A stretch of DNA of 64,000 nucleotides from a virus (Duplodnaviria > Caudoviricetes). Made by a program: the position numbers and the translations under genes. A model generated the notes under the pieces. It was not told the origin of the DNA. It ran no database searches and was given only the letters and a program-made list of their open reading frames with translations. Position 1 is the stretch's first letter; each line of letters opens with the position of its first letter. The DNA lies in the IMG/VR virus record IMGVR_UViG_3300021255_000123, positions 21,435 through 85,434 of that record, one strand, 5' to 3'. Shown here in pieces: positions 4,207-63,055 of this stretch.

Positions 4207-4817
4207 AGTAGTGCTGCTTTAAGTTCGGTTCTCGGAGTCTTTCTCTCGTAGATGGCCTCGCCATTGGAGAATTGAGCCACCTTGACCAACTCTTCTTCCG
4301 CACATGTCCGGCAAATCTTCTCGCAATCCTCGACGATACTGTCGAGCCACAGTTCGAGTTTTTTTTCCAAACCCTTTCTGTGCATTGTTGCAAGACCCTT
4401 GTTCACGGAATGGTTCCCGTCTTTGTATTTGTCCTCTACGAAAGAGAGTGCAAGAGAGCCGGTGTCTCCTTGTTTGAGCTCGTATCCGTCATAGAAGTTG
4501 TCCGAAAGTTCTATGTTGTAGTCTATGGTGGCGCCTTCATAATATGCAGAGCGGAGCCCAAGCATGACTTTGGCATAATATATTTCGCCACCATACCGCA
4601 TTTCGTAGTTTCGTTCTGTGGCGAAATGAAGTTGGTAGTCCCTTGCATAACTGCGCTCCCATTCATCGGTATCGCTCCATGCCTTGTTTTCGGCCTTTGC
4701 CACTTCCTGTATGTCTTCACGGATGGAATCCAAATCAATGTATTCCTCAGGTTCTCTATTGATGCCTACACAATGGTAGTCTTTTGCGTTCTTTTTTGAA
4801 AAGTTGTGTGTGCTCAT
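4203..4817 (-). CDS. Conserved-type phage hypothetical protein (RSAYYEGA motif)
   Basis: 204-aa ORF with A-rich leader; the RSxYYEGA word recurs in phage hypotheticals (recalled). Confidence 0.75.
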   Translation of the reverse strand: MSTHNFSKKNAKDYHCVGINREPEEYIDLDSIREDIQEVAKAENKAWSDTDEWERSYARDYQLHFATERNYEMRYGGEIYYAKVMLGLRSAYYEGATIDYNIELSDNFYDGYELKQGDTGSLALSFVEDKYKDGNHSVNKGLATMHRKGLEKKLELWLDSIVEDCEKICRTCAEEELVKVAQFSNGEAIYERKTPRTELKAALL

Positions 4818-4913
4818 AATGTGTTACTTTTTGATGGTTAATACTATTTAAGGTTTGAATTGGTGAGTATGGGAACCTCTCGGCTCCCATACCCTGCGGA
4901 GTTTCCGACGCTC

Positions 4914-5372
4914 CTATTTGTTCTCTCCCTCGGCTTCGGGGTTCTCCACCACGGCATACTTGCCTTTTGTGATGCCTTTCACGAGGTCTTCGAGTTTCTG
5001 GCTTGACCACCAATCGTAGTCGTATCCGATTTGCAGGATGATGACACTTCCGATGATGCTGTCGGTGAACGGTGCGCCCTCTTCGCTGTTCTTGCGGTTG
5101 TGGCTGTCAACCCAAGAACAGACCATGTTGATGGCCTCAACGTCGCTCTTGCTCTTCGGCAGGAGGACATAGGCGTGGTTGTCATCGCTGCCAGTGTCGA
5201 AGATACCATACTCGGTGCCCTCGTTGATGACACAGTTGCGCATCCGTCCGAAGATGACGCCTTTGGCAGACTTTTCGTATGTCTGGCACTCGGCCTCGTT
5301 GGTGAACTCGGTCCCGTCGCAAGCGACATAGACGGTGGTGTAGGAAATGTTTTCTCTCTGTTCTTTTTTCAT
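4914..5372 (-). CDS. Hypothetical protein (YVACDGTEFTNEAECQTYE motif)
   Basis: 152-aa ORF; the N-terminal Y.A.DGT.F....EC..YE word is common in Bacteroidota phage hypotheticals. Confidence 0.8.
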   Translation of the reverse strand: MKKEQRENISYTTVYVACDGTEFTNEAECQTYEKSAKGVIFGRMRNCVINEGTEYGIFDTGSDDNHAYVLLPKSKSDVEAINMVCSWVDSHNRKNSEEGAPFTDSIIGSVIILQIGYDYDWWSSQKLEDLVKGITKGKYAVVENPEAEGENK

Positions 5373-5427
5373 TTTGATAGGATTTTAATTGTTTATAACT
5401 GAATTGATTATTCTTGATTGTTCTTGA

Positions 5428-5922
5428 TTAGCTCTGCATTATTCCTGCAAGCAGGACCAGTCCGAGGGCTGCATCCGCTTGTGCAGGAGTCTCAATCATT
5501 CCCACGGTGTCGGCGACCTTCTTCTTGGTGTCGTCATTGAGGGCGTTCCAGCCGGCCTCGAACATATTGGTGAAGCGCTCACACTTCTCGTGTTCCTCCT
5601 TAGCCTTGCCCTCAACGAGGATGTTGCGGAGAGGTGTGCTGAGGTGTTCGGGAAGTTTGGCGCAGGCGTTCTGTCGGCTGAGGTCGTAGTCGAAGCGCTG
5701 CCACGGGCGGTTGAGCCATGAGGACTTGCCCGTAACCGTGTACAGGGTGCGATACTCGGCACCTTCACCGCACGTTACCTCAATCTCGGTGCGCTCGGTG
5801 TGGCTGCCCGTGGTGTAGCAGTAGCGGGTGTACTCGTACACTCTCGCTGAATACTTTTTGTTGTCCGTACCGATGAAATCGTGGTACGTTACATTCTCGT
5901 TGTAAGGTTTTGTAGAAGCCAT
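5428..5922 (-). CDS. Hypothetical early protein
   Basis: 164-aa ORF with AACCTTAAA leader. Confidence 0.8.
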   Translation of the reverse strand: MASTKPYNENVTYHDFIGTDNKKYSARVYEYTRYCYTTGSHTERTEIEVTCGEGAEYRTLYTVTGKSSWLNRPWQRFDYDLSRQNACAKLPEHLSTPLRNILVEGKAKEEHEKCERFTNMFEAGWNALNDDTKKKVADTVGMIETPAQADAALGLVLLAGIMQS

Positions 5923-5961
5923 TTTTCTTTGATTTTTAAGGTTTGTTATCGATTGATTATT

Positions 5962-6219
5962 TCATGTGTCTTCTTCATAATATTCTACAGACGTTGGACT
6001 AATTGTTGCCATAAAGTTCTCATCACGAACAATGGTAACAGCGATTGACTTATAGTTCACGTCTATATAGTGTTCTTCATCATTTTTTCGGATTATGTTT
6101 GCTTTAACGTCCATAAATTCGGACGTTAGTACATCTTCAATATCCTCAAATGGGAAGCTGCGTACAATATCAAGTAATTCGGTGTATGCTTGAATTGCTT
6201 TGTATGGGAGTATTGTCAT
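5962..6219 (-). CDS. Hypothetical acidic protein (AT-rich gene)
   Basis: 85-aa ORF. Confidence 0.7.
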   Translation of the reverse strand: MTILPYKAIQAYTELLDIVRSFPFEDIEDVLTSEFMDVKANIIRKNDEEHYIDVNYKSIAVTIVRDENFMATISPTSVEYYEEDT

Positions 6220-6231
6220 GTCTTGATGTTT

Positions 6232-6471
6232 TTAATTGATTAGTTGAGGACCAGAGGAGAGGCACCACATATTGCAAGCCATGCGTACCTCGCTCGGCTC
6301 GTGTTTACCCCTCAACGCCTCGGTCAGTTTATCCATGAGTTTCTCATAGACGCTCATGCGGAGTTTGTGCTTGCAGCAGTCGATAGGATTGTCCTCTGTT
6401 ACTTCGTTAATATCCACGGACGGCTCACTTTGCAGGTAGCACTCGCGGACGAAATCGTTGAATGTTTCCAT
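6232..6471 (-). CDS. Hypothetical early protein
   Basis: 79-aa ORF. Confidence 0.7.
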   Translation of the reverse strand: METFNDFVRECYLQSEPSVDINEVTEDNPIDCCKHKLRMSVYEKLMDKLTEALRGKHEPSEVRMACNMWCLSSGPQLIN

Positions 6472-6475
6472 GTCG

Positions 6476-6592
6476 TTATCCTCTCTTGGTTATCGTTATC
6501 AGCCCAAGTGCGTTCTTCCTGCGCACATAGTCGCAGGCTTTTTTCTCGTTGTGTGTCATCATGCCGCACACAATTCGGCCTTCGTTGTTCAT
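6476..6592 (-). CDS. Possible 38-aa peptide (MNNEGRIVCGMMTHNEKKACDYVRRKNALGLITITKRG)
   Basis: Manual translation; fills the gap after an AACCTTAAA leader and ends just before the next ATG. Confidence 0.45.
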   Translation of the reverse strand: MNNEGRIVCGMMTHNEKKACDYVRRKNALGLITITKRG

Positions 6593-6737
6593 ACATAATA
6601 TGTGGATTTTCATCGTATTGGTGATTTAAGGTTGATAATCGTAAAGGTCGGTGTAGAGGTCGCATAGTTGACGTATTTCATCGTACACAGGCAGGTCAAG
6701 GTTATTTCCGTACATTCTTCGCCTCCTTCCTATCGTA

Positions 6738-6935
6738 TTAAAATCGTACTAAATTCGCCATACGGCTAATGTATTCGTCGTAGGTATTGCTGCCAGCGAC
6801 ATAACGCTCCCAGAAATTCTTCGCACCACGCTCCGTCTTGTGGTAGACGTACTCGTAGCACCTGGTCTTCCTGTTGTATAAGGTCGTTACGTATTCACCG
6901 TAGCGACCCGCCTGATAATTCTTGTAAGTCTTCAT
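6738..6935 (-). CDS. Small basic/aromatic hypothetical protein
   Basis: 65-aa ORF tiling the operon. Confidence 0.7.
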   Translation of the reverse strand: MKTYKNYQAGRYGEYVTTLYNRKTRCYEYVYHKTERGAKNFWERYVAGSNTYDEYISRMANLVRF

Positions 6936-6943
6936 TGTATTTC

Positions 6944-7306
6944 TTATTCTGCGCCAACAAAGGCGACTTGGTTGTTATACTCGACCGTTACGGCCTCTTG
7001 TTTGTACTCTCTGGCTATTCTTCTGGCGATGTCTACCACCTCGTCAGCATGTGCCACGGATTGTTCGGTCGTGCAGTATGCGTACACGATGGTAACTTGT
7101 TCCGTCACCACTTTCCCGTCGGCACATCGCCATCCACCAAGCGCAGGAGTCGCGGTTGCACCACCGAAGAGGTCTGACAATTCACCAATGACACGCTCGA
7201 CCTCTTTCGTGTTGTCGATGTGTTCATTCACATTCATTGTGCTTGGGACGTAAATTGCCCATCTGCAGTTCAAATCGAATTTGAATTTCAATTCTTTCGT
7301 TTTCAT
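6944..7306 (-). CDS. DUF3574-like (ferredoxin/P-II-like fold) protein, start MKTKELK
   Basis: LFGGATATPALGGWR..DG....E...and YKQEAV resemble DUF3574 motifs; ATG overlaps the upstream TGA. Confidence 0.5.
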   Translation of the reverse strand: MKTKELKFKFDLNCRWAIYVPSTMNVNEHIDNTKEVERVIGELSDLFGGATATPALGGWRCADGKVVTEQVTIVYAYCTTEQSVAHADEVVDIARRIAREYKQEAVTVEYNNQVAFVGAE

Positions 7307-7530
7307 TGTTCGCCTCCTTTCCATTCTAATCCTAAAAAGATTGTTATCCACAAAAACATTGAGACAAGGTAAGCCACCCCCCAAAAGGTCGGGGTGTCTT
7401 GTTGGAACATTAATGTTATTTGTTTGTTTATTGTCTGGAATACAACTGGCGCAATGGCGGCCACTGCAAACAGTATCATGGTGAACATCACCCACCATTC
7501 TGAGCCCAAAAATCTCTTAATTGCTTTCAT
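7303..7530 (-). CDS. Small two-TM membrane protein (start MKAIKRF)
   Basis: Two hydrophobic stretches; A-rich leader. Confidence 0.65.
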   Translation of the reverse strand: MKAIKRFLGSEWWVMFTMILFAVAAIAPVVFQTINKQITLMFQQDTPTFWGVAYLVSMFLWITIFLGLEWKGGEQ

Positions 7531-7651
7531 TGTTAAAAATATTAAATTGTTTGTAAATTCCACAAAATTGTCTATCACGTGCGTACACCTGCACGTTAAA
7601 TAAAACTACTCGTGCACCCGCGTCCCGTCGCGTGCGCAGTTATACTACAAG

Positions 7652-7930
7652 TATTATTCTCATTCGTGGGTGCGGGAGTTATTCGGGGCACACTATTCGC
7701 CCAGACTATTCATCGACAATTCGGACATAGTACGGACTATTCGGGTTATTCGTTTATACTTCGTACTTTCGTACATAGCAACCACGACGCAATTTCTCGC
7801 ACCGTGGCCATATTATTCTCGCACACTATTCGCTCACAACTCACACCCGTACCTAGTACCGGCAAATTCTTTTTTATCCCATGTATTGCGGCTATTCTTC
7901 ACCCTCATTTTTACACTATTCGTGCGACAA
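7652..7930. repeat. Cluster of about 12 dispersed WATTCG/TTCG repeats in non-coding DNA
   Basis: ATTCG at 7662, 7681, 7695, 7719, 7739, 7748, 7828, 7918. GCACACTATTCGC occurs at 7688 and 7821; TATTATTCTC at 7652 and 7811. Confidence 0.7.
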
Positions 7931-8091
7931 TTCACACGTTCTTTGTACACATGAATGTCGTTTAACTTGTCCGGCAATTCTTTATTATACCCAAGTTTCA
8001 CGGCATAGTTCATTGCCTCGCTACGGGTGCAAAATGTGGACACAATGCACCCGTATTTGTACACATGATATTCTCCCATTGTTCGTTGAGT

Positions 8092-8541
8092 TTATTTGTT
8101 GTATTTGCTTGCTTTTTTGCCTACAAGGTTGAAAAGTTTATCCGTGTTGTAATGCGAATTGTTGCAGCAACGCAACAGTTCTTCTGAGGTGCAGCAGTCA
8201 ATAGTAAGTTTCATCTGGTCGATTGTGAAGGGATATTTCTTTTTCAACATGATATTGCGTAATGTGCTTTTTGCCTTATTTTTCAATTCCAATTCACTCA
8301 ATTTACAGTGCTCAATCATGGTTATTCCACATGATTTTGTGCCCCAATTGTTACTGTTTGCATTTGCAATTGCACGGACATTCAACCACAATTGAATGTT
8401 TAGTTTCCGAAGCAATTGCATTGCGTGGTGGTACTTGTTTTTTAGTAACATACATTTTGCAATGTCATTGTTTGCAATTGCGTTGTTTGCAATATTTACA
8501 ACAATTTCGTTTGCTTTTTCGTTTTTAACAATGTGTTTCAT
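8092..8541 (-). CDS. Hypothetical N/K/C-rich protein, probably the first gene of the early operon
   Basis: 149-aa ORF with the same AACCTTAAA leader 13 nt upstream as gene 5428..5922; atypical composition. Confidence 0.55.
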   Translation of the reverse strand: MKHIVKNEKANEIVVNIANNAIANNDIAKCMLLKNKYHHAMQLLRKLNIQLWLNVRAIANANSNNWGTKSCGITMIEHCKLSELELKNKAKSTLRNIMLKKKYPFTIDQMKLTIDCCTSEELLRCCNNSHYNTDKLFNLVGKKASKYNK

Positions 8542-8607
8542 AATGTTATAAATTTTAAGGTTATTAATAAATTAGTGCCGTTGTGTTATCGAAAACTATT
8601 TGCGTAA

Positions 8608-8623
8608 TGTTTCACGTGAAACA
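8608..8623. promoter_or_regulatory. parS: parS site (TGTTTCACGTGAAACA), copy 1
   Basis: Exact match to the conserved bacterial parS consensus, inside a perfect 24-bp palindrome at 8604-8627. Confidence 0.85.
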
Positions 8624-8685
8624 TTACCAAACAACGGCAATATAGAGTTACTAATTTGCGTTATTCGTTTCTGTCAACGCAACAA

Positions 8686-8701
8686 TGTTTCACGTGAAAC
8701 A
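8686..8701. promoter_or_regulatory. parS: parS site (TGTTTCACGTGAAACA), copy 2
   Basis: Exact match, inside a perfect 24-bp palindrome at 8682-8705; 78 bp from copy 1. Confidence 0.85.
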
Positions 8702-8739
8702 TTGTGTTGCAAACCTGTCTTAACTATTTTTGCAACAAT

Positions 8740-9330
8740 TAGTTAGTTATTGGCTCAATTAATGCAATTGCGTTATTTGCTTTCCTATTTTGCACATATT
8801 GCAGAATGTGTTGTGTATGTTTTCCACATTGCGCACACTCTAATTGTCAGTGTAATATTGTCCGGTTGCATAGTTGTATATGCAGCGCCATGAATATGTG
8901 TGTACACTATATATAGCAAGTGCCAAACCTTAACACAATATACAACGTATTGTGCTTTCGTTGTGTCAATACTTACATAACTGGCAACTTGTTTTGTCAT
9001 GCAGTATATTGACAATGTTTTATTGCTATATAGTGAGTTATACAATTGTAAGTGCAATTTGCGTTGTATCATACAAACAATTGTATAACTGACAATTTGC
9101 AATGTTTTGTTGTGTCTGTCTGTTTCAACAAACATAACTTACACTTTTATATATTTTGTTGGCTGGTTTGTTTTCTGTTATTGCCGTTAGTGTATTGGCA
9201 GTGCAAAATATACAATGTATATCGTTATTTTCGTTTAATATACACAACGTTTCCCGTTTCTTATCCTCTCATGCCTTTCGGTATCATGAATGCCAATGTG
9301 AGTTGCAAAAACTCTAACAACGTTTGTTTC
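8740..9330 (-). other. AT-rich multi-hairpin non-coding leader (possible ncRNA or ssDNA structure)
   Basis: Perfect 14-bp stem 9036-9049/9077-9090; nested stems 8905-8919/9023-9035, 8965-8973/9003-9013 and about 8934-8954. Confidence 0.45.
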
Positions 9331-9413
9331 TGTGTCAATAAACTATATTACGGCTGTTTCAACTGCCTCAATGTTTCATGAATAACATACTTTTTCAACC
9401 CGCCAGCCAGTGT

Positions 9414-9426
9414 GTCAAAGAACTTT
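9414..9426 (-). promoter_or_regulatory. boxA-like antitermination site (AAAGTTCTTTGAC)
   Basis: About 25 nt downstream of the predicted early start site; near-identical word after the 15162 promoter. Confidence 0.55.
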
Positions 9427-9455
9427 CGAAAACCTTTTTGTTTCGTTTTCGGTTG

Positions 9456-9490
9456 CAAAAGTACAACGACTTTCGGACACTTTCGGAAAA
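9456..9490 (-). promoter_or_regulatory. Bacteroidota primary-sigma promoter driving the leftward early operon
   Basis: -7 element TACTTTTG (plus strand CAAAAGTA, 9456-9463). The -33 TTTG is not canonical here and is replaced by TTTCGG repeats. Confidence 0.65.
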
Positions 9491-9798
9491 ACACGTTTTT
9501 TTTAACATTTTCGGACCGGCTGAACGCTGTAAAGTGCTGAAAATGAAAGGGTACACCCCCGAACGCCAACCGTGGTGCGCCGGTATGCTCCCCATCGATA
9601 TTTTTTATTTTTTAATTTTTTCTGATTTTTATTTTTCATTTTTTTATTTTATTATTTTATACGTCAGGTAGTTGTGTGAGGTCAGTTAAATTGACACTTG
9701 AACAATAAAATCGGTGGTGCTGCGTTATATGGATATAATTTATTAACTATAAAACTAGAATAGATATGTGTTGTAAATGGATAAAAGAGTCGAACAGG

Positions 9799-10041
9799 AT
9801 GTACCATGTGTATGTCGGGTTCGTAGCGGCCTTGTTCGGGACCATAGTGGGCGCCATTGAGGTTGGAGTGGCTATGGAGGCCAAGGATTGTCATCACGAT
9901 GCAGCTAATACCGGGAAGAAGCCGTGGGAGTGGACGTGGAGGTGCTTTGACTGGAAGGACTTTGCCGCGACGGTCGTCGGCGGTATATTGGGCCAGCTGG
10001 TGCAGCTTGGGGTGGTCTGGCTGATATTTTTGCGGAAATAG
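9799..10041 (+). CDS. Small membrane protein (FDWKDFAATVVGG motif)
   Basis: Two hydrophobic segments; the DWxDxxAT..GG word is common in Bacteroidota phage membrane proteins. Confidence 0.7.
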   Translation: MYHVYVGFVAALFGTIVGAIEVGVAMEAKDCHHDAANTGKKPWEWTWRCFDWKDFAATVVGGILGQLVQLGVVWLIFLRK

Positions 10042-10051
10042 TGTGATTTTT

Positions 10052-10083
10052 TTTTGGTATGTTGGGAATTATGTGTATATTTG
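10052..10083 (+). promoter_or_regulatory. Bacteroidota promoter
   Basis: TTTG near 10053 and TATATTTG at 10076-10083. Confidence 0.7.
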
Positions 10084-10107
10084 CATTGTAACATTTATGA
10101 TGTAAAC

Positions 10108-10359
10108 ATGGATAAGAAAATCGAAATCAACGGCTTGGAGAGGTCTGACAAGGGCGGTTCCCATCGGAAATACCGGCATGGGGGCGTAAAAATCGGCATG
10201 TACAACTTCAACGGGGAGCTGGAGGCCGAGTTTTTGGACCTCGACTCCGCTGTCGCGGAGAATACTGTCGGTGCGACGTACCGTGGGATAGTGGACTGCA
10301 TCACTGGGAAGACGAAGAAACATGCCGGGAAGATATGGAGGAAGGAGGCTGCGGTATGA
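10108..10359 (+). CDS. Stand-alone NUMOD1/IENR1-like HTH DNA-binding protein
   Basis: IGMYNFNGELEAEF...IVDCITGKTKKHAGKIWR aligns with the NUMOD1 repeats of the two HNH genes. Confidence 0.65.
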   Translation: MDKKIEINGLERSDKGGSHRKYRHGGVKIGMYNFNGELEAEFLDLDSAVAENTVGATYRGIVDCITGKTKKHAGKIWRKEAAV

Positions 10360-10646
10360 TGGGCCAAGGGACACTGAGGATAGAGGTGGCGACGCTAATG
10401 AAGCTGCTGCCGCTGTGGATGCGGACCGCCGGGTTCGTGGTTGACGACAGCAAGATAGCCGCCACGGGGATGATGTGGGTGGACGCCGGCACGTTGGGCT
10501 TCGGCTCCAGAGAGATTGCCGGCTACTTTGCATCGATGCTGCGGGGCCTGACGATTATAGACGGCGGCCTGTGGTACAAGGTTGACGACGAGCGCCGGGT
10601 GGTGTTTGTGAAGATAGAATACGATAATAACCAACAAAAAGACTGA
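10356..10646 (+). CDS. Hypothetical protein
   Basis: ATGA overlap with the upstream stop; ORF track 10335..10646. Confidence 0.65.
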   Translation: MMGQGTLRIEVATLMKLLPLWMRTAGFVVDDSKIAATGMMWVDAGTLGFGSREIAGYFASMLRGLTIIDGGLWYKVDDERRVVFVKIEYDNNQQKD

Positions 10647-10650
10647 TACG

Positions 10651-10812
10651 ATGTTTTGGAAGATATTTTTGATAGTTGTAGCGGTGCTACTGCTGTTGTT
10701 CCTGCTGTTTGCCGTGTTCTTTTGCGTCGGCCTTGCCGTGATGCTGAACGGCGACGACGAGGGGAGTCTCACCGTGTTCTACCATGAAGGCGACATCGAC
10801 CAAAGACTGTGA
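10651..10812 (+). CDS. 53-aa single-pass membrane protein (MFWKIFLIVVAVLLLLFLLFAVFFCVGLAVML...)
   Basis: Manual translation; long hydrophobic stretch followed by an acidic tail. Confidence 0.6.
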   Translation: MFWKIFLIVVAVLLLLFLLFAVFFCVGLAVMLNGDDEGSLTVFYHEGDIDQRL

Positions 10813-10932
10813 GGACTGGTGCGACTGGCTGTGCGAGTGCTGCGACACGACCAAATGTGCGTCGTACAGGCCGCCTGATGTTAAACCAGAGGTTGAAGTA
10901 AACGAATGTAAACAATTAACACTCTTTGAGAT

Positions 10933-11259
10933 ATGAAGAACAATAAACTCTTTATCGCCATGCCGTCTATGGCCGAGGCCCTGATGGACGACCTGCGCAA
11001 GAAGCTCGAAATCGCCGACACCCTGTTCGACAGGCACGGCAATGCGGACGTGGCTCTCCGCGAGAACCACTACGGCTTCTCCACCGTGGCGCCCAAGAAG
11101 ACTGACAGCAAGTTCCGGTGCTTCCGGCGTATGCTCGGATGCTCGTTCATCTACATGCCGTGCGGATGGCACAATGACGACTGCAGCCGCAAGGCTTTCG
11201 CGTGGGCCGAGTTCCTCGGCAAGAAAGTAATCTTCGAGGAGGACGGACGATGCAGATAA
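10933..11259 (+). CDS. DUF4406-like (nucleoside deoxyribosyltransferase-fold) protein, divergent
   Basis: KLFIAMP...MLGCSFIYMPCGW...AEFLGKKVIFE follows the DUF4406 pattern. Confidence 0.6.
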   Translation: MKNNKLFIAMPSMAEALMDDLRKKLEIADTLFDRHGNADVALRENHYGFSTVAPKKTDSKFRCFRRMLGCSFIYMPCGWHNDDCSRKAFAWAEFLGKKVIFEEDGRCR

Positions 11260-11747
11260 GGGATTGGGTCAGCCTGATGTCCCGCAACGGTCAGGTATGC
11301 ACGTCGTACATGCGCAAGCTGGGAGCAGTAGAGACCAAGGAGGACATGTTCCGAGTCCTGTGCGACGCCAACGGTGGCGCGTGGCTCTTCGAGCTTGCTG
11401 CAAAGGACTTCCGTCTGCTCCCCGTCGAACAGTTTATGAAGGAGTTTGACGAGTACATCAACGGCAAGCGCGTCATGCAGTACCCGAAGGGCTACAGCGG
11501 CAAGTTCTACTGCCGGCACGACGGCGAGATTGTGGCCGACGCCACTCTGGTGTACGTTCTCGACTGCCCGGACGCCAAGATTACGGTGCCGAAGAACATG
11601 TACCCGTCGGTCATCCTGTCGCCACACTCCCATGCCACGATTGCCGTGGAGCCGGGTGCCCGCCTGAACATCGAAACCTACGGCGACGCATCGGTGAAGT
11701 CCATTGCCGGCGACATGAGCCGGGTAAGAGTCAAGAACAATGTCTGA
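11250..11747 (+). CDS. Hypothetical protein with C-terminal beta-rich repeats (start MQIRDW)
   Basis: ORF 11202..11747; strong C-ending codon bias typical of this genome. Confidence 0.75.
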   Translation: MQIRDWVSLMSRNGQVCTSYMRKLGAVETKEDMFRVLCDANGGAWLFELAAKDFRLLPVEQFMKEFDEYINGKRVMQYPKGYSGKFYCRHDGEIVADATLVYVLDCPDAKITVPKNMYPSVILSPHSHATIAVEPGARLNIETYGDASVKSIAGDMSRVRVKNNV

Positions 11748-12162
11748 CGAGGAGCGCGACATATACGAGGATTTGACGTCCTACGGACCGGAGGAAGGCT
11801 CGTCAGGCCCGATTACGGGCGTGAAGGTCTATGACGGGCACAGCTGGTACATAACGACCCGCCTGTCGGACATCGTGGGCGCCGAAATCATCGAGAAGGA
11901 GGACGAGGACACCGGAAGGCCCGTCCGTGGTTTGTTCCTGCCATTCGGGATGTCCGGCCTGACGGTAACGCCGAAGAAGAACGTCCTCTTGGTCTGCAAG
12001 GCGCAGATGGCTCAGGTTGCTTCGAGCAAGTACACCCACCTTCTCACCCAGATAATCGACAAGACGGTCGCCGAGGCCAGAAAGAAGCTCGGTTTCCAGC
12101 AAAACTATATAGGGCACATGCGTCAGGCTGGCCCAAAACCACTCAAAAAACGTAAAAAATAA
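11740..12162 (+). CDS. Hypothetical protein, distant paralog of 54783..55142 and 55512..55931
   Basis: Shared pattern L..I.G..I.E...G...RG.F.P...G...TH.L. Confidence 0.7.
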   Translation: MSDEERDIYEDLTSYGPEEGSSGPITGVKVYDGHSWYITTRLSDIVGAEIIEKEDEDTGRPVRGLFLPFGMSGLTVTPKKNVLLVCKAQMAQVASSKYTHLLTQIIDKTVAEARKKLGFQQNYIGHMRQAGPKPLKKRKK

Positions 12163-12163
12163 C

Positions 12164-12394
12164 ATGAAAGAAAGGCAGATAGGAGAAAAATTCAAGTACC
12201 CCGGATTGGGGACTCTCATGGTAGTTCGGGAAGGCGCCGTGAACGAGTGCCACGGGTGCATATTCAACGGTCCCAAGCACTGCGAGAACGACGTTGATAA
12301 GATTCACACCGGCAGCTGCGCCCTCAGCGAGAGGAGCGACAAATACGGTGTGATTTTCGTCAAATCGACCAAGGAAGGAGGTGCCAATGCGTGA
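12164..12394 (+). CDS. Small Cys-containing phage protein (CxGC...C...C; RSDKYGVIFVK)
   Basis: 76-aa ORF; motif typical of small Bacteroidota phage proteins. Confidence 0.75.
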   Translation: MKERQIGEKFKYPGLGTLMVVREGAVNECHGCIFNGPKHCENDVDKIHTGSCALSERSDKYGVIFVKSTKEGGANA

Positions 12395-12776
12395 CATTCT
12401 GTTTAGAGGCAAGAAGGAGTCCGGAGAATGGGTGTATGGCGACCTTCTTCACATCAATGATGAATACGAGATTGGAGTCCCAGGAAAGGGTGTTTCGCGT
12501 GTATGTGGCGAGACTGTCGGCCAGTACACCGGACTGAACGACAAGAACGGCAAGAAAATCTTTGAAGGCGACTACTTGAAGACAAGAGCGCTCACTGGAG
12601 AGGTGTATGTTCAGGAGGTTCGCTGGACCAACAAATTCAATATCGTTGGATTCCGTATGGTTGACAGTGATGAGTATTGGGATGATTTCGACGACTATGA
12701 GGGTCGTATTGAAGTTGTTGGAAATATCCATGACGACGATATTGAAAAAATCAAAGAGGAGGTCTACAATGCTTAA
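12381..12776 (+). CDS. YopX family protein
   Basis: MRDILFRGK...GEWVYG...TVGQYTGLNDKNGKKIFEGD...EVVGNIHD. Confidence 0.9.
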   Translation: MPMRDILFRGKKESGEWVYGDLLHINDEYEIGVPGKGVSRVCGETVGQYTGLNDKNGKKIFEGDYLKTRALTGEVYVQEVRWTNKFNIVGFRMVDSDEYWDDFDDYEGRIEVVGNIHDDDIEKIKEEVYNA

Positions 12777-12950
12777 AGTTGACGATACCGGACGAGGAGT
12801 CCTGCAATTCGAGTCCACGGGGGTTGTCCGGCGCATACCGCTGGAGCGCCGTGGTCATACCAAGGGCGGCAAGGAATGGACGCTCGGTTGGGGTCCTGCT
12901 GGAGGTCGGTGAGAAGCGACAAGTGCGGTGTCATTTTCATCAAAGAGTGA
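12769..12950 (+). pseudogene. Chimeric relic: 5' part of a DUF3127-like gene joined to a copy of the 3' end of gene 12164..12394
   Basis: RRIPLERRG.TK.G.EW.LG is shared with 13892..14254. 12909-12944 matches 12329-12364 at 30/36 nt (RSDKCGVIFIK). Confidence 0.75.
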
Positions 12951-13109
12951 TTTTTTTTGATATTGACACAATAATTATGCAAAACCATCGTTATAGCAGT
13001 ATCGACCATAAAACAGGGGTGTCTGCTACCATCCTTGTGCGAGATAAACGCTAATTTTAGCGGGAAGCCGTAGATTGTAGCAGGTCTATGGCTTCCACTT
13101 TTTATAACA

Positions 13110-13895
13110 ATGGAAACAGGGAATAAAATAAACGAGGAATGGAGGCCGGTTGTCGGCTATGAAGGCATTTATGAGGTGTCTGAATATGGTGATATTGCGT
13201 CGTTGAATTACAACAAAACAGGAGTCAGGAATATTCGTAAGCCAAAAATAACAAAAGACGGGTATCTTGAAATAGCATTATGCAAAGACTCAAAAATGAA
13301 ACATGTTCGTGTTCATAGGGTTGTTGCAATGGCTTTTATTCCAAACCCAAACAATTTACCTCAGATAAATCACAAAGACGAGAATAAGTTAAATAATCAT
13401 GTTGAAAATCTTGAATGGTGTGATTTGAAGTACAATGTGAATTATGGTACGGCAATAGAAAGGCGGTCAAAGAAGATAAGTATTCCTGTTATGCAGATGT
13501 CGTTAGACGGCGATATTATTTCTGAATATGAGTCCGTCAGTGAAGCCGCAAGAAAAGTTGGGTTAAGAACAGGCGACATCGTAAATGTCTGTAATGGGAA
13601 GAATGTTTCTGCTCATGGATATAAGTGGAGATATAAAGACGATTGCTTATTCAGAAAAGCACAAACTCGTAGAAAGAAGGTAGTGGATAAATATACAAGT
13701 AATGGCATTATATGTAGTGTTGACAATATAAAACCTGTTTTGCAATATACACTTGATGGAATTTTTATGGAAGAACATACTAGTATCAGAGCCGCCGAGA
13801 GAAAAACAGGGATAAGACACGATTCGATATGGCAATGTTGTCACAACAAGGTCAATAAAACGCATGGATATATATTCAAATTCAAAGAAATATGA
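13110..13895 (+). mobile_element. Free-standing NUMOD4-HNH-NUMOD1x2 homing endonuclease
   Basis: EEWRPVVGYEGIYEVSEYG (NUMOD4); VHRVVAMAF...INHKDENKLNNHVENLEW (HNH); two NUMOD1 repeats; AT-rich relative to flanks. Confidence 0.92.
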
Positions 13896-14254
13896 TAACA
13901 CAAGATTCTACAGGCAAATGTCTCCTCTCTTTTGAAAACGAGGCAACTATAAGGAGAATACCACTAGAGAGACGTGGTATGACAAAAAAAGGGATAGAAT
14001 GGGTCCTTGGAAGTTGTTTGGTCGAGGTATCTGATAATGAGCAGAATTGCTCGGCCCAACTGTTTTTGGTAACCTTTGAGCCAGAGCTGATTGAGCAACT
14101 GAACGTGATTGGTGTAGGGAAAAATGTCAAGATACGGTGGCACATTGATTGTCGTGAAAGATACGATTCATACTCTGTATCGGCAATCCTAGACGAGATA
14201 GGCTTGATGACCGATGCTGAGAACTTCCTGATTGGCAAAGGTAAAAAGAAATGA
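13892..14254 (+). CDS. DUF3127-like OB-fold protein
   Basis: ER.G....G.EW.....EV......TF..E.IEQ....VG..V...HIDCRE matches the DUF3127 pattern as recalled. Confidence 0.65.
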   Translation: MITQDSTGKCLLSFENEATIRRIPLERRGMTKKGIEWVLGSCLVEVSDNEQNCSAQLFLVTFEPELIEQLNVIGVGKNVKIRWHIDCRERYDSYSVSAILDEIGLMTDAENFLIGKGKKK

Positions 14255-14646
14255 GCGAGACCTACATAGACTTGGAGCCATACGAGGACCGGATTATCGC
14301 ACAGCGGAGCCGCACGGCGATAATCTTCCTGTACCCGTTCATCCGGGAGGCGTACAGGTACGGCATGAGGGTGCAGACCCGCGACGGTCGCGTAGTCAAA
14401 AAGGTCCGCGTAGGAGGCGCAAACGGAGCCGCTGTGGTGGTAGGCATCCTAGACGGCGAGGAATTGCGCTGGGATGCCGCAGGACGCTTTCTGGGGCCGT
14501 ATCAGGACGACCCGAGAGACTTGTTTGTGCCGGAACGCTACATGTACAAGGACTGGAGGGAGAATATCGGCCTGTCGAACAGCGAGTGGGCCGTAACCTT
14601 CGGGAAGCCTCATCCGGGAGTCAAGATGCCGAAAAAAGATAATTAA
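14251..14646 (+). CDS. Hypothetical protein (VQTRDGRVV motif)
   Basis: 131-aa ORF; ATGA overlap. Confidence 0.75.
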   Translation: MSETYIDLEPYEDRIIAQRSRTAIIFLYPFIREAYRYGMRVQTRDGRVVKKVRVGGANGAAVVVGILDGEELRWDAAGRFLGPYQDDPRDLFVPERYMYKDWRENIGLSNSEWAVTFGKPHPGVKMPKKDN

Positions 14647-14657
14647 CCGTTTCTAAT

Positions 14658-14864
14658 ATGACCGACGAGGAATTTGACAACACAACATTCCACAAAGGAG
14701 ACAAGATTGAAGTGTGCCACTACTTCAAGACCGAAGTTGAAGATGTAGAATATGTGAATATAATTGACAGATATATAAATAATTACAAACCACAACAAAT
14801 CTCAAAATATATAAGTCATGCCAAGAAAGAAACCAGAAGAACCAATCATCGTCAATCCGAATGA
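14658..14864 (+). CDS. Small hypothetical protein
   Basis: 68-aa ORF. Confidence 0.6.
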   Translation: MTDEEFDNTTFHKGDKIEVCHYFKTEVEDVEYVNIIDRYINNYKPQQISKYISHAKKETRRTNHRQSE

Positions 14865-15063
14865 ACCGCTCCGCAAGTGCTACGACTGCGTGCATTGGCA
14901 CATGTGCAAGGATGGCAACAACAGTGACGGCGCTGTCGATTTCTCGTCCGGCAGCTGCGACCACAACGGTTACTCCAAGGTGCCGCCGCTGTTCACATGC
15001 CCCGGATGGGCCTCAGGAAGCGGCGAAATTGCCGATACATTGAGCCTACTGATGTCGAATTAG
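14818..15063 (+). CDS. Small Cys-rich hypothetical protein (CxxC..W..C...C...C)
   Basis: 81-aa ORF; possible zinc binder. Confidence 0.65.
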   Translation: MPRKKPEEPIIVNPNEPLRKCYDCVHWHMCKDGNNSDGAVDFSSGSCDHNGYSKVPPLFTCPGWASGSGEIADTLSLLMSN

Positions 15064-15138
15064 CCGGCATCCGTGCCGAAAGATTGAAAAATTTTCTCGC
15101 ACAAAATCAGCAAAGTACGAAATATTTTCAAAAATTAT

Positions 15139-15169
15139 TTTGCCATATCGGAAATAGTTTGTACTTTTG
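15139..15169 (+). promoter_or_regulatory. Bacteroidota promoter for the tRNA/ncRNA cluster
   Basis: TTTG near 15139-15142 and TACTTTTG at 15162-15169. Confidence 0.8.
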
Positions 15170-15192
15170 CATCGCTTTTGAGACGGAAACGG

Positions 15193-15205
15193 AAAGTTCT
15201 TTCAC
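15193..15205 (+). promoter_or_regulatory. boxA-like site (AAAGTTCTTTCAC)
   Basis: 12/13 identical to the site at 9414-9426 and in the same promoter-proximal position. Confidence 0.55.
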
Positions 15206-15260
15206 TCGAAAGGGTAATATGGCCAGAAGAACGGAGTACGAGAAGTTAAGAAAGCAACTT

Positions 15261-15351
15261 CGCTGAGTAGCTCAGGTATTAGAGCGGTTTGGTAAGTCCG
15301 GAAACGGTGAGTCCAAGCAGGTCATTGGTGAGAAGCCAATCTCGGCGACTA
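15261..15351 (+). ncRNA. tRNA-like RNA with an expanded 22-nt anticodon loop
   Basis: Acceptor CGCTGAG/CTCGGCG; D-stem GCTC/GAGC; anticodon stem GTTTG/CAAGC around a 22-nt loop containing CCG-GAAA-CGG; T-stem ATTGG/CCAAT with non-canonical loop TGAGAAG; 3' ACTA. Confidence 0.7.
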
Positions 15352-15373
15352 GAATCAAAAGAGATTCAGAGAT

Positions 15374-15450
15374 TGTGGGGTCACTGGAGACGGTTCCAGC
15401 CTTGGCTCATAACCAAGTCCACGTCGGTTCGATTCCGACCCCCGCTACCA
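15374..15450 (+). tRNA. tRNA-Met (CAT)
   Basis: Anticodon stem CTTGG/CCAAG with loop CTCATAA; T-arm GTCGG-TTCGATT-CCGAC; encoded ACCA; 1:72 mismatch. Confidence 0.85.
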
Positions 15451-15559
15451 AGCCAAAAGAAGGCAACACAATATAAGCTGAATGTCGGGAAAGTCAGCGA
15501 GGATTGTAAGACAGATTAGGTTCGGTTTCACCAGTCAAGTAAACCATCTTCAACCCCTG

Positions 15560-15590
15560 CAACCCCGACTACGCTGGGGTTGACTTTTTT
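15560..15590 (+). terminator. Rho-independent terminator-like hairpin
   Basis: CAACCCC/GGGGTTG followed by a T run; an alternative 5' arm TCAACCCC lies at 15550-15557. Confidence 0.6.
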
Positions 15591-15591
15591 A

Positions 15592-15860
15592 TATTGGCTG
15601 GTGTTCCACAAGACGAGTAAAGAGAACCCACCCAAAGGAACACGAGAGCCGTAGGGGAGCCAGTACAACACGGCAGCGTAAAGGGAAAGCGAGAGTTGAG
15701 GTGATTCCGCGTACACGACGATGATTGTCGAATAAACACCTCTGCGATTAGCAAACATCGGCGAAATCGCTTGTAAAGTCCGGGACTGACAGGTTCAGCA
15801 GAAGACAATACAAAGTTTTGTTCGCCGGTTGACGGTAAGGGAAACTTTGGTCTGAACCGA
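15592..15860 (+). ncRNA. Unidentified multi-domain structured RNA directly upstream of an HNH gene
   Basis: Stems 15592-99/15658-65, 15601-07/15637-43, 15698-703/15737-42, 15744-49/15765-70, 15792-98/15852-58 and 15811-18/15842-49; no credible ORF. Confidence 0.6.
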
Positions 15861-15900
15861 AACGTTCTTGGTTAGCAGTAAGATAAAATAGATATATACT

Positions 15901-16464
15901 ATGACGATGGATAAAGAAATATGGAAAGATATACATAATTACGAGGGACGGTATCAAGTTAGTAATTATGGGAATGTACGTTCCTTAAATCATAATCAGA
16001 AAGGTGTTGTAAAAGAAATAAAAAAGAGAATTTTACGAGGTTATTATTATGTTAGGTTGCAAAAGAACGGACAAAAAGAAGAGTTTAAGATACACAGATT
16101 AGTATATGCAGCATTTGTAGGAGAATTGCCAGAATGTACATTAAAAGGTGACGGAAATAAAATACTGGTTGTAAACCACAAGGATGAAAATAAACTAAAT
16201 AACCGTGCGGATAATTTGGAACTTTTATCGCATACTCAAAACATAAACTATGGGGAAAATTCAGTTGTAAGGAGTGTGTATCAGTATAGTTTAGACGGTG
16301 TATTGATAAAAACTTGGCGTTCTATGACGGAGGCAGAGTCTGCCGGATTCAGCAAACATGCCATCTGTTTATGCTGTACAGGAAGAATTAAAACACACAA
16401 AGGGTATAAGTGGGTGTATGCTGACAATAAACAAAATCGAAAAGGAAGAAAAAAGACAATATAA
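15901..16464 (+). mobile_element. Free-standing NUMOD4-HNH-NUMOD1 homing endonuclease
   Basis: EIWKDIHNYEGRYQVSNYGNVRS; IHRLV...VNHKDENKLNNRADNLE; C-terminal NUMOD1; AT-rich. Confidence 0.92.
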
Positions 16465-16655
16465 ACCAATAAAACAGACAATTATGAGTAAAATTCTGAA
16501 AATCTCAGCCGGCGTCCGTTATGATGAGGATGCCGGGTCTCTTAACCACCTCAGCACTGGTTGTGCAGGATAAAAAGAGCTTATGGATGGAATGATGAAA
16601 AAATCTCTTCATGTTTTGAACAAAACTTATTGAAAACCATTATAAAACACAAAAT

Positions 16656-16865
16656 ATGAATACATTTCAAGGTGAACGTACAAAACCGTTATCCAAAGGA
16701 AAAGTGAAATATACAAATGATTCCTGCGTCGGAATTGAGTTTGCTCCTATTGACGAAAGTGAAACACACGGCAGGATTCCAATCTTGTCCATCATTATGA
16801 CCGTTTCAGTTGAGGATGCTGTAGAAATCGCGAAAGATATTTTGAAAAGATATGAGCAACAATAG
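16656..16865 (+). CDS. Small hypothetical protein
   Basis: 69-aa ORF with A-rich leader. Confidence 0.65.
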   Translation: MNTFQGERTKPLSKGKVKYTNDSCVGIEFAPIDESETHGRIPILSIIMTVSVEDAVEIAKDILKRYEQQ

Positions 16866-17055
16866 ATTTACGCAAGTTGACCGTATATTTCACGGAGAAG
16901 GGGCCAGCAAGTGTAACTGGTATGAGGTGTACCATAAGTATGGTTATTATTGGGCGAAATTTGAGTTGACATCAGGTAAGAAGTATGCTCAAACGCCAAA
17001 GCAATGTATTAGTATTAAGTGGATTCTTGAAAGTCATTTCAAAAAAATGTTATAG
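16852..17055 (+). CDS. Small hypothetical protein
   Basis: 67-aa ORF overlapping the upstream stop. Confidence 0.6.
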   Translation: MSNNRFTQVDRIFHGEGASKCNWYEVYHKYGYYWAKFELTSGKKYAQTPKQCISIKWILESHFKKML

Positions 17056-17063
17056 TAAACGAC

Positions 17064-17249
17064 ATGACAGATAAAGAAAAAGAAATAGGACGCAATTCCG
17101 TAATATCGGGAAGAACTTACATAAAAACGGATATGGCGTTTCAACGATATAAAGAACGTCGGCGTGACAATGCTCTTATCCTGTTGTTTGACGGTATTGT
17201 CATCCTGATTATTGCAATCGTTTTGGTATTATTTAATTTTTGTCAATAA
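17064..17249 (+). CDS. Small protein with a C-terminal TM helix
   Basis: Hydrophobic LILLFDGIVILIIAIVLVLF. Confidence 0.6.
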   Translation: MTDKEKEIGRNSVISGRTYIKTDMAFQRYKERRRDNALILLFDGIVILIIAIVLVLFNFCQ

Positions 17250-17302
17250 ATCGAAAAAATTGGCAAAAAATTGAAACGTAAAATAGTAAATAACAATAAA
17301 TT

Positions 17303-17641
17303 ATGGAAGACACAATAAAAGTAAAAGTGAACGAGAACGGCCAGTGGACCGAATATTCATTGCCTTATGAGGAGTTCGCGTATATTCAACCCATCCTCGA
17401 ACGCTGCAAGGACAAGCGGGTGGTCAACTTCGACCCCAACGACCCCGAACAGTCTGCGGAACTCATTGGGCGTATCTTTATGCCGTTTGGCACGGCCCAG
17501 CAGAACGGGCGCAAGGGCATTATCTACAACCTCAATGACAAGCCCAAGGATATGACAAAGGAGCAAGTTGAGGACACTTATCAGAAAAAGGGTATTCTTT
17601 ACATCAGGAGCAAGAAAACACAAACACAGGCAATATTGTAA
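17303..17641 (+). CDS. Hypothetical protein
   Basis: 112-aa ORF with core codon bias. Confidence 0.75.
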   Translation: MEDTIKVKVNENGQWTEYSLPYEEFAYIQPILERCKDKRVVNFDPNDPEQSAELIGRIFMPFGTAQQNGRKGIIYNLNDKPKDMTKEQVEDTYQKKGILYIRSKKTQTQAIL

Positions 17642-17660
17642 ACGTTTTAGGATTAGTATA

Positions 17661-17703
17661 AAAAGCGGAGGCTCGGCGTTAAGTTGTCGAGCCTCTTGCT
17701 TTT
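17661..17703. terminator. Bidirectional terminator between convergent operons
   Basis: AAAAGCGGAGGCTCGGC...GTCGAGCCTCTTGCTTTT hairpin with A and T tails. Confidence 0.8.
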
Positions 17704-17765
17704 CAAGAGTCGCCGTCCGACGGCTCCCTAACTACACGACCAACATGGGCCGTAAGATGGAATAT

Positions 17766-18353
17766 TCACTCGCGGGGCGTAAATGCCGGGTTATCCAGCG
17801 AGACCTCTCCTGTGATAGCATCCACGAATACACAGTCGTCGAAGGCGCCTCCAAAGATATACTGCGGGTTACATTCATACGGCCCGACCATTTTCCGGAG
17901 TACGCAGTCCTTCGTGTGCGGTTTGATGCAGTTCGCTTTCATCAGGTTCTTGTAGGCTTGACGGTAAGTAATAGTAATGTAGTCTTTAGCCATGTCGCAA
18001 TCTTCCATCCAAGCGTCATCGACTACTTTAATTGTAAACGTACTATCAGTGTGCTTAAACATATACACATGAGGTGAGTACGCTGTGTCGCCGCCGTCAA
18101 CGATTTGGAACACGTTGAGAACACTGGCAACTGTGCCGGTGCAGTTATCGTCATCGAGCCACTCGTTGAGGACAATCTGTGTCTCGTAATAGACGTAGCC
18201 GCAGCCGTAGTGGTCGCACATGTACTGGCGGTCAGATTGGACCACCTGCTCGACCATAGTTTCCATCTGCTTGACCTCCTTATTGCACGATGTGCAAGAC
18301 GACGCCCCAAGCAGGAGGGCAAACGCCATCAGGAACGCTAAAAACTTTTTCAT
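17766..18353 (-). CDS. Lipoprotein (lipobox LLGASSC) with a PepSY-like C-terminus
   Basis: Signal peptide II; C-terminal NPQYIFG...VFVDAITGEV. Confidence 0.75.
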   Translation of the reverse strand: MKKFLAFLMAFALLLGASSCTSCNKEVKQMETMVEQVVQSDRQYMCDHYGCGYVYYETQIVLNEWLDDDNCTGTVASVLNVFQIVDGGDTAYSPHVYMFKHTDSTFTIKVVDDAWMEDCDMAKDYITITYRQAYKNLMKANCIKPHTKDCVLRKMVGPYECNPQYIFGGAFDDCVFVDAITGEVSLDNPAFTPRE

Positions 18354-20291: not shown

Positions 20292-20819
20292 TTATTGGGG
20301 TTTTTCGATTAAGTTAAACTTTTCCATTGCGGCTTCCTTGTCGAGCTGGTAGCACTCATGTCTGGTGTGGGGGCAGATGAAATCGAATTTCTTTTCGACG
20401 ATAATCATCCTGTTTCGCTTCGACGCCTCAACCTTGAACTTGTCGTTCAACTTGGTTCGGATGTCAACGATTCTGGCATAACCGTCTTTCTTTTCGATAA
20501 CGCCCTTCTCCATATCGCGCTCGATGTCGGCAATCATCTTCGTAAGAGCCGATTTGTTTTCCTCGAAGGTGATGCTTCCGTCATCCTCATCGGTGCTTAT
20601 GGCCCGGATGTAACCCTCTTCTGTCATATATTCTTCCAGCTTACTCCTCAACTCGTCGTTGATATAGTCGCTGTACCCTTCCTGCGTGCCGAACAAGCAC
20701 TGGTAGGCAGTCTTCGTGTCGGAGAACATCTTTGAAAGCAGGATGTATGCTATGTCTCTGACACGGATGCCGTCAGTCTTAAAACGCTCAACTGTGTTTT
20801 TTATTTGTTCATTGTCCAT
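20292..20819 (-). CDS. Helical packaging-operon protein, candidate terminase small subunit
   Basis: 175 aa, helical, between TerL and portal; function inferred from position only. Confidence 0.5.
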   Translation of the reverse strand: MDNEQIKNTVERFKTDGIRVRDIAYILLSKMFSDTKTAYQCLFGTQEGYSDYINDELRSKLEEYMTEEGYIRAISTDEDDGSITFEENKSALTKMIADIERDMEKGVIEKKDGYARIVDIRTKLNDKFKVEASKRNRMIIVEKKFDFICPHTRHECYQLDKEAAMEKFNLIEKPQ

Positions 20820-23511: not shown

Positions 23512-23537
23512 CTTAATTTCTATAATTAAATCCGGTG

Positions 23538-23570
23538 CAAAAGTACGAACATTTTTCAAAATGACAAAAA
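23538..23570 (-). promoter_or_regulatory. Promoter of the packaging operon
   Basis: TACTTTTG on minus (23538-23545) with upstream TTTG elements. Confidence 0.75.
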
Positions 23571-23707
23571 TTTTCTTCAAGCACAACTTTAAATATGGCG
23601 TTTTATTGCCCACAAAACCAACAAAATATAAAAATCATCATAAATTTAATCGCGTTTTAGTCAACGAGTTAAAGTGTTACTTTAAGTAATTGTTGAAAAA
23701 TATTTGG

Positions 23708-62007: not shown

Positions 62008-62292
62008 TTAGCTGTTTAATTGTTGGTTAATTTTTTCGATGTCTTCCTTGAATTTGGTGTCCGATTTGAGGGCGACACAGGCTCTGGCGCAGATAATCTG
62101 GACCTGCCTGTCGGTAATGCCGAACAGCTCGGACAGGACGTAGCTCTTGACTCCGTTGGAGTACAGCAACCACATCAGGGCGCTACGGGCGCCGTCGTAG
62201 GGATAGGTGTACTTACCCTTCTTGTACAGGTCGGCGGCATCCACCTTGAAGTGGGCGCTGACCGCTTTCTCTATTTCTGATTTCTGTTTCAT
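62008..62292 (-). CDS. Second stand-alone DnaA domain IV-like protein (start MKQKSEIEK)
   Basis: IEKAVSAHFKVDAADL...ARSALMWLL...LSELFG...D..FKEDIEKINQQL. Confidence 0.7.
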   Translation of the reverse strand: MKQKSEIEKAVSAHFKVDAADLYKKGKYTYPYDGARSALMWLLYSNGVKSYVLSELFGITDRQVQIICARACVALKSDTKFKEDIEKINQQLNS

Positions 62293-62300
62293 TTCGGATG

Positions 62301-62330
62301 CAAAAGTACGAATAATTTTTGATACACGAA
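62301..62330 (-). promoter_or_regulatory. Promoter yielding a near-leaderless mRNA
   Basis: TACTTTTG (62301-62308) lies only 8 nt from the ATG at 62292. Confidence 0.65.
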
Positions 62331-62350
62331 TAAATTTTTTCGCGTTTTCT

Positions 62351-63055
62351 TCAAGATTTTTGGTTAAACATTGTGTCTGAGGGCATTGTGGCGGTAAATT
62401 TTTCACACCAAGACTCCTCTTCGAGCTTTTTCGTGAGAGGATTGTCGCCATCGAACACCTCAATTTTGTGTTTTTGCATCAATGCTTTAGACGCATCGTT
62501 GAGAGTCGCTGTACTTCCGAGCCTTCCATAGAAGTCCTCTTTGAGGTATTTTATCATCCTGTCGGCATGGTGCTTTCTCCGGTGCCCCTCCTTTGTCTCG
62601 ATGGTGTAGATAGTCTTCCACTCTTCGTAACCCTCGCTGTCAAAGCCAACAGCATAAATGCAGCGACAGAACTGCGACCGGGCGTCGTACACTTTGATAA
62701 CCTTTCCTTCCGGGACAACGAACTGGTTGGTAATGTTGCGCTCGGCAATCATGGCAATCTCGATGTCCTCTTGGAGCCTCTTATGGAAGCTGTCCTCGCC
62801 ATCGTCGCTGCACTCCAGACGGTCTATTCTGTTTGCATACGCAAATGCAGCCCGCATGATGATTAAGCCTTTGCGGTATTCTTTCATCGTCTCTTCGCTC
62901 AGGGACCTTGCATAGTTCTGCTCCCAATCGTCCGGGTCAACCTTATCCTCTTCGAGGAGCCTGTGTTCCTCAAACCGTTTCAGCTGCTCGGCGAAAGGAA
63001 TAATGTAGAATGTGTTGAAATGGTCCTGAGCATATTCAAATTTTCCTCCGCTCAT
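62351..63055 (-). CDS. Hypothetical protein with an MSGG.FEY N-terminus (SGDDG-type family)
   Basis: MSGGKFEYAQ...YA.RID.L..SDDGEDSFHKRLQED, a recurrent phage family. Confidence 0.75.
   Translation of the reverse strand: MSGGKFEYAQDHFNTFYIIPFAEQLKRFEEHRLLEEDKVDPDDWEQNYARSLSEETMKEYRKGLIIMRAAFAYANRIDRLECSDDGEDSFHKRLQEDIEIAMIAERNITNQFVVPEGKVIKVYDARSQFCRCIYAVGFDSEGYEEWKTIYTIETKEGHRRKHHADRMIKYLKEDFYGRLGSTATLNDASKALMQKHKIEVFDGDNPLTKKLEEESWCEKFTATMPSDTMFNQKS

Follow-up and report, generated by a model that had tools for sequence, protein, structure and literature searches.

Two conserved ParB-type parS sites in the early-operon leader of a rumen phage without partition genes probably recruit host ParB

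We analysed a 64,000-nucleotide stretch (hereafter the window) corresponding to positions 21435–85434 of a complete 85,434-bp rumen phage record, in which the palindromic 16-mer TGTTTCACGTGAAACA is present as two exact copies. These palindromes are probably genuine ParB-type parS sites that selection has kept on a virulent-type phage lacking partition proteins, where they would recruit the chromosomal ParB of the host. Recruitment of host ParB is the best reading of the locus because the parS words are selected, the conserved unit is exactly the 16 bp read by ParB, and the phage itself encodes neither ParB nor ParA nor an integrase. The features of the locus are collected in Table 1.

Table 1 Features of the parS locus and the early-operon leader, in window coordinates.
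Feature	Position	Strand	Remarks
First leftward gene, predicted all-helical 149-aa protein of no known family	8092–8541	−	
Mosaic leader of the leftward early operon	8542–9445 (to ~9460)	−	Non-coding; AT-rich (30–37% G+C)
parS module, ~190 bp	8575–8765	.	Common to L208; an unrelated ~145-bp stretch stands in its place in L209
Inverted repeat P1, first arm TGCCGTTGT (+ strand spelling)	8576–8584	−	Pairs with 8631–8639
Small hairpin P3, GTT-TTCGAT-AAC (minus strand)	8585–8596	−	Loop TTCRAT conserved; stem covaries in relatives
Proximal parS	8608–8623	.	Exact 16-mer; centre 74 nt before the ATG of gene 8092–8541
Inverted repeat P1, second arm ACAACGGCA (+ strand spelling)	8631–8639	−	Pairs with 8576–8584
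Hairpin beside distal parS, arms 8656–8662 and 8676–8682	8656–8682	−	Arms covary in relatives, read from the alignment
Distal parS	8686–8701	.	Exact 16-mer; centre 152 nt before the ATG of gene 8092–8541
Candidate rightward −7 box TATTTTTGCA	8725–8734	+	Just right of distal parS; not conserved in L208
Bacteroidota-type −7 promoter box TACTTTTGCA, leftward	9454–9463	−	922 nt upstream of the first gene

Both copies fit the ParB/Spo0J-type consensus, a 16-bp palindrome of the form TGTTNCACGTGAAACA, at 16 of 16 positions. The original observation of two exact chromosomal-type copies was confirmed, and neither the window nor the rest of the complete 85,434-bp genome has a further match to TGTTTCACGTGAAACA at three or fewer mismatches; by our own arithmetic, the chance expectation for one exact 16-mer in 64 kb is about 1.5e-5. 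As had also been noted, each copy lies inside a different perfect 24-bp palindrome, the proximal one in 8604–8627 (GTAATG...CATTAC) and the distal one in 8682–8705 (ACAATG...CATTGT), with the 20-bp core AATGTTTCACGTGAAACATT common to the two. Host DNA misjoined during assembly is excluded as the source because the same module recurs at the same place on independent JGI, ENA and Logan contigs of different samples.

The phage genome was scored as 100% complete and has 107-bp direct terminal repeats. PHROG matches identified a portal, a large terminase, a tape-measure protein and RecT, and an HU gene and two HNH endonucleases are present. Six-frame searches of the whole genome found no ParB_N, HTH_ParB, TIGR00180 ParB or AAA_31 (ParA-type) domain and neither a tyrosine integrase nor a serine recombinase, each searched ParB, ParA and integrase family having been detected in control genomes. 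The lack of ParB and ParA that had been noted for the window thus extends to all 85,434 bp, and the remainder of the genome, where parA, parB and an integrase had still to be looked for, holds none. The large terminase (window 20809–23613, minus strand) is unusually long at 934 aa, and its N-terminal half also gave PHROGs matches to helicase-loader and primase-type P-loop families.

The extended Bacteroidota −7 box TAnnTTTGCA occurred 14 times against 2.9 expected, a count reached by 0 of 100 shuffles; Bacteroidota-type −7 boxes were placed at operon starts, and a Shine-Dalgarno sequence is missing from most genes. These promoter motifs and the weak Shine-Dalgarno use indicate that the host is probably a member of Bacteroidota. 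Consensus-type parS clusters are located at the origin domains of gut Bacteroidales (PMC10197239). The phage HU gave matches of just 38% and 29%, in genomes without SusD, and a wider HU search for host assignment returned phage relatives only. HU had also been grouped with two DnaA-domain-IV-like proteins as a toolkit for taking over the host nucleoid. The HU is real, but of the pair (53645–53953 and 62008–62463, minus strand) one matched Bac_DnaA_C below threshold only (22 bits versus a cut-off of 31.5; E 1.3e-4) and the second had no Pfam hit, leaving the argument weak. The word AAC(C)TTAAAA recurs about 12–20 nt before the start codons of many genes without a Shine-Dalgarno sequence, for example at window 8554–8563 and before the genes starting at 5922, 5372, 3510, 23774, 24498 and 28628; it may signal translation initiation in a way specific to the phage or its host.

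Relatives were found via the gene beside the sites in metagenome and assembly look-ups, which gave about 19 contigs representing 11 distinct lineages with 59–89% protein identity. The proximal site, located 67–89 nt before the ATG, was exact in seven of the 11 lineages, decayed by two mismatches in one and replaced together with the module in three; the distal site was exact in four lineages and carried one mismatch in a fifth, L208 (CACGTG to CATGTG). In an alignment anchored on the proximal site, with 14 nt taken as flank on each side, all 16 parS columns were invariant across seven lineages in which the neighbouring protein fell to 59% identity, while 26 of the 28 flanking columns varied. 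At the distal site, 15 of 16 columns were invariant. Invariance of the 16 columns within varying flanks therefore indicates that selection acts on the 16-bp ParB recognition word and that constraint is confined to it. The 24-bp palindromes were rejected as the functional unit; they are lineage-specific and not kept in relatives, so the extensions described originally fall outside the conserved unit.

Counting parS in related phages had been proposed as a check, and gave 0, 1 or 2 sites per lineage with the word itself conserved. The module is dispensable, as close relatives carry any of these numbers: parS is missing from L209 and L224 and decayed in L217. The portal is common to about 60 viral contigs; 30 of them were examined (50–98% portal identity), including distant ones at 50–67% portal identity, and an exact parS was found in 0 of these 30. 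G001, which at 98% portal identity is the nearest relative of full length, was uninformative as a comparison, its contig lacking window 4596–18350, and the proteins neighbouring the parS sites had no matches in the viral contig collection. Assemblies break around 4596–18350, where the G001 contig ends on both sides, and most contigs with the 149-aa gene are just 0.8–2.7 kb long; the breaks suggest strain-level hypervariability.

The exact parS 16-mer was found in at least 119 IMG/VR contigs, 26 of which, among the matches listed, had 2–5 sites. Control palindromes of the same composition were found in 2 contigs (reversed) and 39 contigs (centre-swapped), none of them multi-site. Among deposited phage genomes, a parS-containing 30-mer matched 479 records, 342 of them at ≥99% identity, versus 32 and 3, respectively, for a control 30-mer. 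Exact parS is thus over-represented relative to controls in both viral contigs and deposited phage genomes.

This over-representation bears on an unlikely explanation of the locus, in which the 16-mer is the operator of a non-ParB regulator, either a phage protein or another host factor, that controls the leftward early operon, its identity to parS being coincidental. Such an arrangement would fit the position of the sites in a divergent regulatory region, immediately before the first early gene, the spacing of the paired palindromes (about 75 bp, as in operators), the candidate promoter adjoining the distal site, and the swapping of the module as a cassette in L209, L218 and L224, which resembles that of immunity regions. 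It would, however, require a 16-bp palindrome to equal parS by chance (4^-8) and leave the specific excess of parS over control palindromes in phages without a cause. Nor is there an HTH protein or ParB-type domain nearby or genome-wide that could serve as the regulator. In phage repressor–operator pairs, a cognate DNA-binding protein tracks the palindrome; here, the neighbouring proteins have no assigned family, and the 149-aa neighbour is 86–89% identical whether parS is present or absent. The predicted structure of the 149-aa protein is confident (pLDDT 88) and all-helical; Foldseek found nothing at E ≤ 0.001, VIA-align gave helical matches at background level only, and the protein atlas yielded no usable match. 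As modelled, the neighbour gives the operator idea no support because it has no significant fold match, DNA-binding folds included, and does not differ in lineages that have lost the sites.

The leader containing the sites was examined for genes, promoters and stems. A 116-aa ORF at 8785–9135 (minus strand), the sole long ORF nearby, was rejected as a gene, its reading frame being broken in relatives. The promoter-like boxes at 9129–9136 (minus strand) and 8725 (plus strand) are likewise not kept in relatives. Most lineages have a gene-facing consensus promoter equivalent to the leftward box of Table 1 at 610–950 nt upstream. Since this promoter is far upstream and points in the same direction, the parS sites are probably near the end of a long transcribed leader. 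The original description of their setting as non-coding DNA upstream of the first early gene is accurate in that the DNA is non-coding, but the sites do not lie simply upstream of a promoter; they are inside a long predicted transcribed leader. L208 matches the window leader at about 9400–9160 and 8770–8540 and not between, and L209 at about 9150–8770 only, a patchwork that therefore points to recombination between leader cassettes.

Probable transcription of the sites raises a second alternative, that the palindromes act as hairpins in the early-operon leader RNA or in single-stranded origin DNA, as part of a multi-stem control of processing, stability, antitermination or priming. The arms of P1 bracket the proximal parS and change jointly in L225 and L227, so that their complementarity is kept in three spellings (GCCGTTG/CAACGGC, GCGGTTTG/CAAACCGC and GTGGTTTGTTTG/CAAACAAACCAC); P3 and the hairpin beside the distal site also covary, and in L209, which lacks the parS module, the −75 position is occupied by a different hairpin of 12 bp. 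Unlike these structural stems, the 16-mer is invariant even in what would be its loop, and the outer positions of the palindromes are unpaired in most relatives. Palindrome position 11 has changed on both arms of both sites between the window and L208, which speaks for hairpins, but palindrome-correcting copying slips leave such double changes too, without any selection. An Rfam search of window 8000–10200 gave nothing credible. With the identity to parS again left to coincidence, we consider a hairpin function of the sites decidedly unlikely. It is highly improbable that they are a functionless passenger (recently acquired host DNA, a chance palindrome or an assembly artefact), since, although the module is missing from some close relatives and the region assembles poorly into short contigs, the exact word is kept down to 59% protein identity while its flanks diverge, is present in many independent assemblies and has no adjacent host gene.

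For the preferred reading, recruitment of host ParB, we infer from the sequence a course of events in a Bacteroidota host that comprises ParB binding, clamp loading, partition and silencing. Each 16-mer would be bound by host ParB dimers; these would form closed, CTP-dependent clamps and then slide along the adjoining DNA, which here is the leader and promoter region of the leftward early operon. The resulting partition complex would engage host ParA, and possibly SMC, to position and segregate phage episomes during a non-lytic, carrier-state infection, and transcription through the early leader would be damped as a side effect or second function. Partition of an episome in persistent infection is the role we favour, and the sites may in addition damp early transcription, although the data would accommodate partition, titration, SMC loading and silencing. 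A single copy of chromosomal parS, together with Par proteins, stabilises otherwise unstable plasmids (PMC7022226). Some features run counter to the ParB reading: the module is dispensable, the more distant relatives with 50–67% portal identity have no site, two sites are few compared with the five of phi29, and the location in a leader among covarying stems would also fit an RNA or regulatory role. A selected host-centromere site nevertheless offers a cheap and concrete hypothesis, hitch-hiking on the host ParABS and/or silencing by ParB, for the open question of how virulent gut and rumen Bacteroidota phages persist without lysogeny. The locus is a good test case for it, since the comparative signal is unusually clean, the conserved unit coincides with the 16-mer, the early leader is defined, and variants with 0, 1 or 2 sites occur naturally.

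A more far-reaching and rather unlikely version is that ParB at the leader sites works as a switch, by which the early leftward operon is held down while the genome is partitioned as an episome, making the sites a device for both lysis deferment and inheritance. To our knowledge, ParB is not a developmental regulator in Bacteroidota. If the switch were real, it would let a phage that has no lysogeny genes defer lysis in a Bacteroidota host of the gut or rumen that does not sporulate, and the variation between 0, 1 and 2 sites among close relatives would tune the persistence of strains. Bacteroidota form no endospores, and spore entrapment of the phi29 type would be inapplicable if the uncultured host has been correctly assigned.

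Host-type parS on a phage is not a new idea, and the phi29 precedent has been published: five parS sites are bound by host Spo0J and aid entry of the genome into the prespore (PMC2731898). What appears to be new is the probable non-sporulating host and the placement of the sites in a predicted transcribed early leader. The virulent Bacillus phages phi29 and Nf likewise carry several host-type parS without a ParB, ParA or integrase of their own, and host proteins are presumed to act on the phage DNA (PMC2731898, citing Meijer et al. 2005); the present phage has two such sites, both kept by selection. By contrast, phi29 is a protein-primed podovirus with a 19-kb genome and a spore-forming host, whereas the present phage is 85 kb, terminally redundant and probably hosted by Bacteroidota. 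The five sites of phi29 serve spore entrapment and accompany Spo0A boxes, whereas the two found here are clustered in the leader of an early operon. No alternative life cycle is known for this phage.

The locus shares with chromosomal ParABS systems, such as Spo0J-parS of B. subtilis and ParB-parS of Caulobacter (PMC7022226), the identical 16-bp word and the possibility of small clusters in non-coding DNA. It differs from them in being off the chromosome, with no adjacent parAB or oriC, on a replicon without a ParB gene. Like the plasmid-prophages P1 and N15 and the extrachromosomal mycobacteriophages (PMC7157519, PMC3585329), it belongs to a phage genome that, in an episomal state, may depend on active partition; those phages have their own ParA and ParB and their own specific centromeres, whereas this genome has neither protein and thus no parA-parB operon beside the sites. 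A site for a host protein in a phage early control region is also known from the Spo0A boxes of phi29 and the CtrA sites of alphaproteobacterial phages, which are associated with lytic deferment (PMC9437464). Unlike Spo0A and CtrA, the candidate protein here is the partition clamp ParB.

Orphan consensus parS is common in phages, to an extent seemingly far beyond the literature, in which phi29 was the sole experimentally studied case we found. ParB_N was missing from 48 of 50 sampled parS-bearing viral contigs, several near-complete genomes included. The named hosts of the deposited records included Listeria, Clostridium, Bacillus, Microbacterium, Arthrobacter, Gordonia and Pseudomonas, and phi29-like C. 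perfringens podophages among these records had up to seven sites. The annotation around a parS-like match in Butyrivibrio virus Arian was uninformative. Orphan parS also occurs in spacers close to promoters on several other contigs that are rich in Bacteroidota-type promoters.

Individual contigs showed further arrangements. On a contig with Bacteroidota-type promoters (L050:10302–10360), an exact parS lies 40 bp from a TGTTCCACGTGAAACA variant, both being upstream of a leftward operon. L047 is a complete 54.5-kb phage that has Bacteroidota-type promoters and no ParB; at 11566–11900, an orphan parS adjoins a long G+C-rich tandem repeat whose units resemble GAGCCTGAGAGCCCGGGAGCCCAA. A viral contig with a G+C content of 30% has two exact parS within a 60-bp tandem repeat (L061:6680–6790); the repeat is located inside a long ORF (5910–7223), and parS is therefore written into coding sequence. 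Five phi29-like human-gut viral contigs of 12–18 kb (L008, L022, L066, L072 and L107) have 3–4 exact parS each without ParB_N, several of them with inverted terminal repeats, suggesting that many Bacillota phages of the gut use the phi29 strategy.
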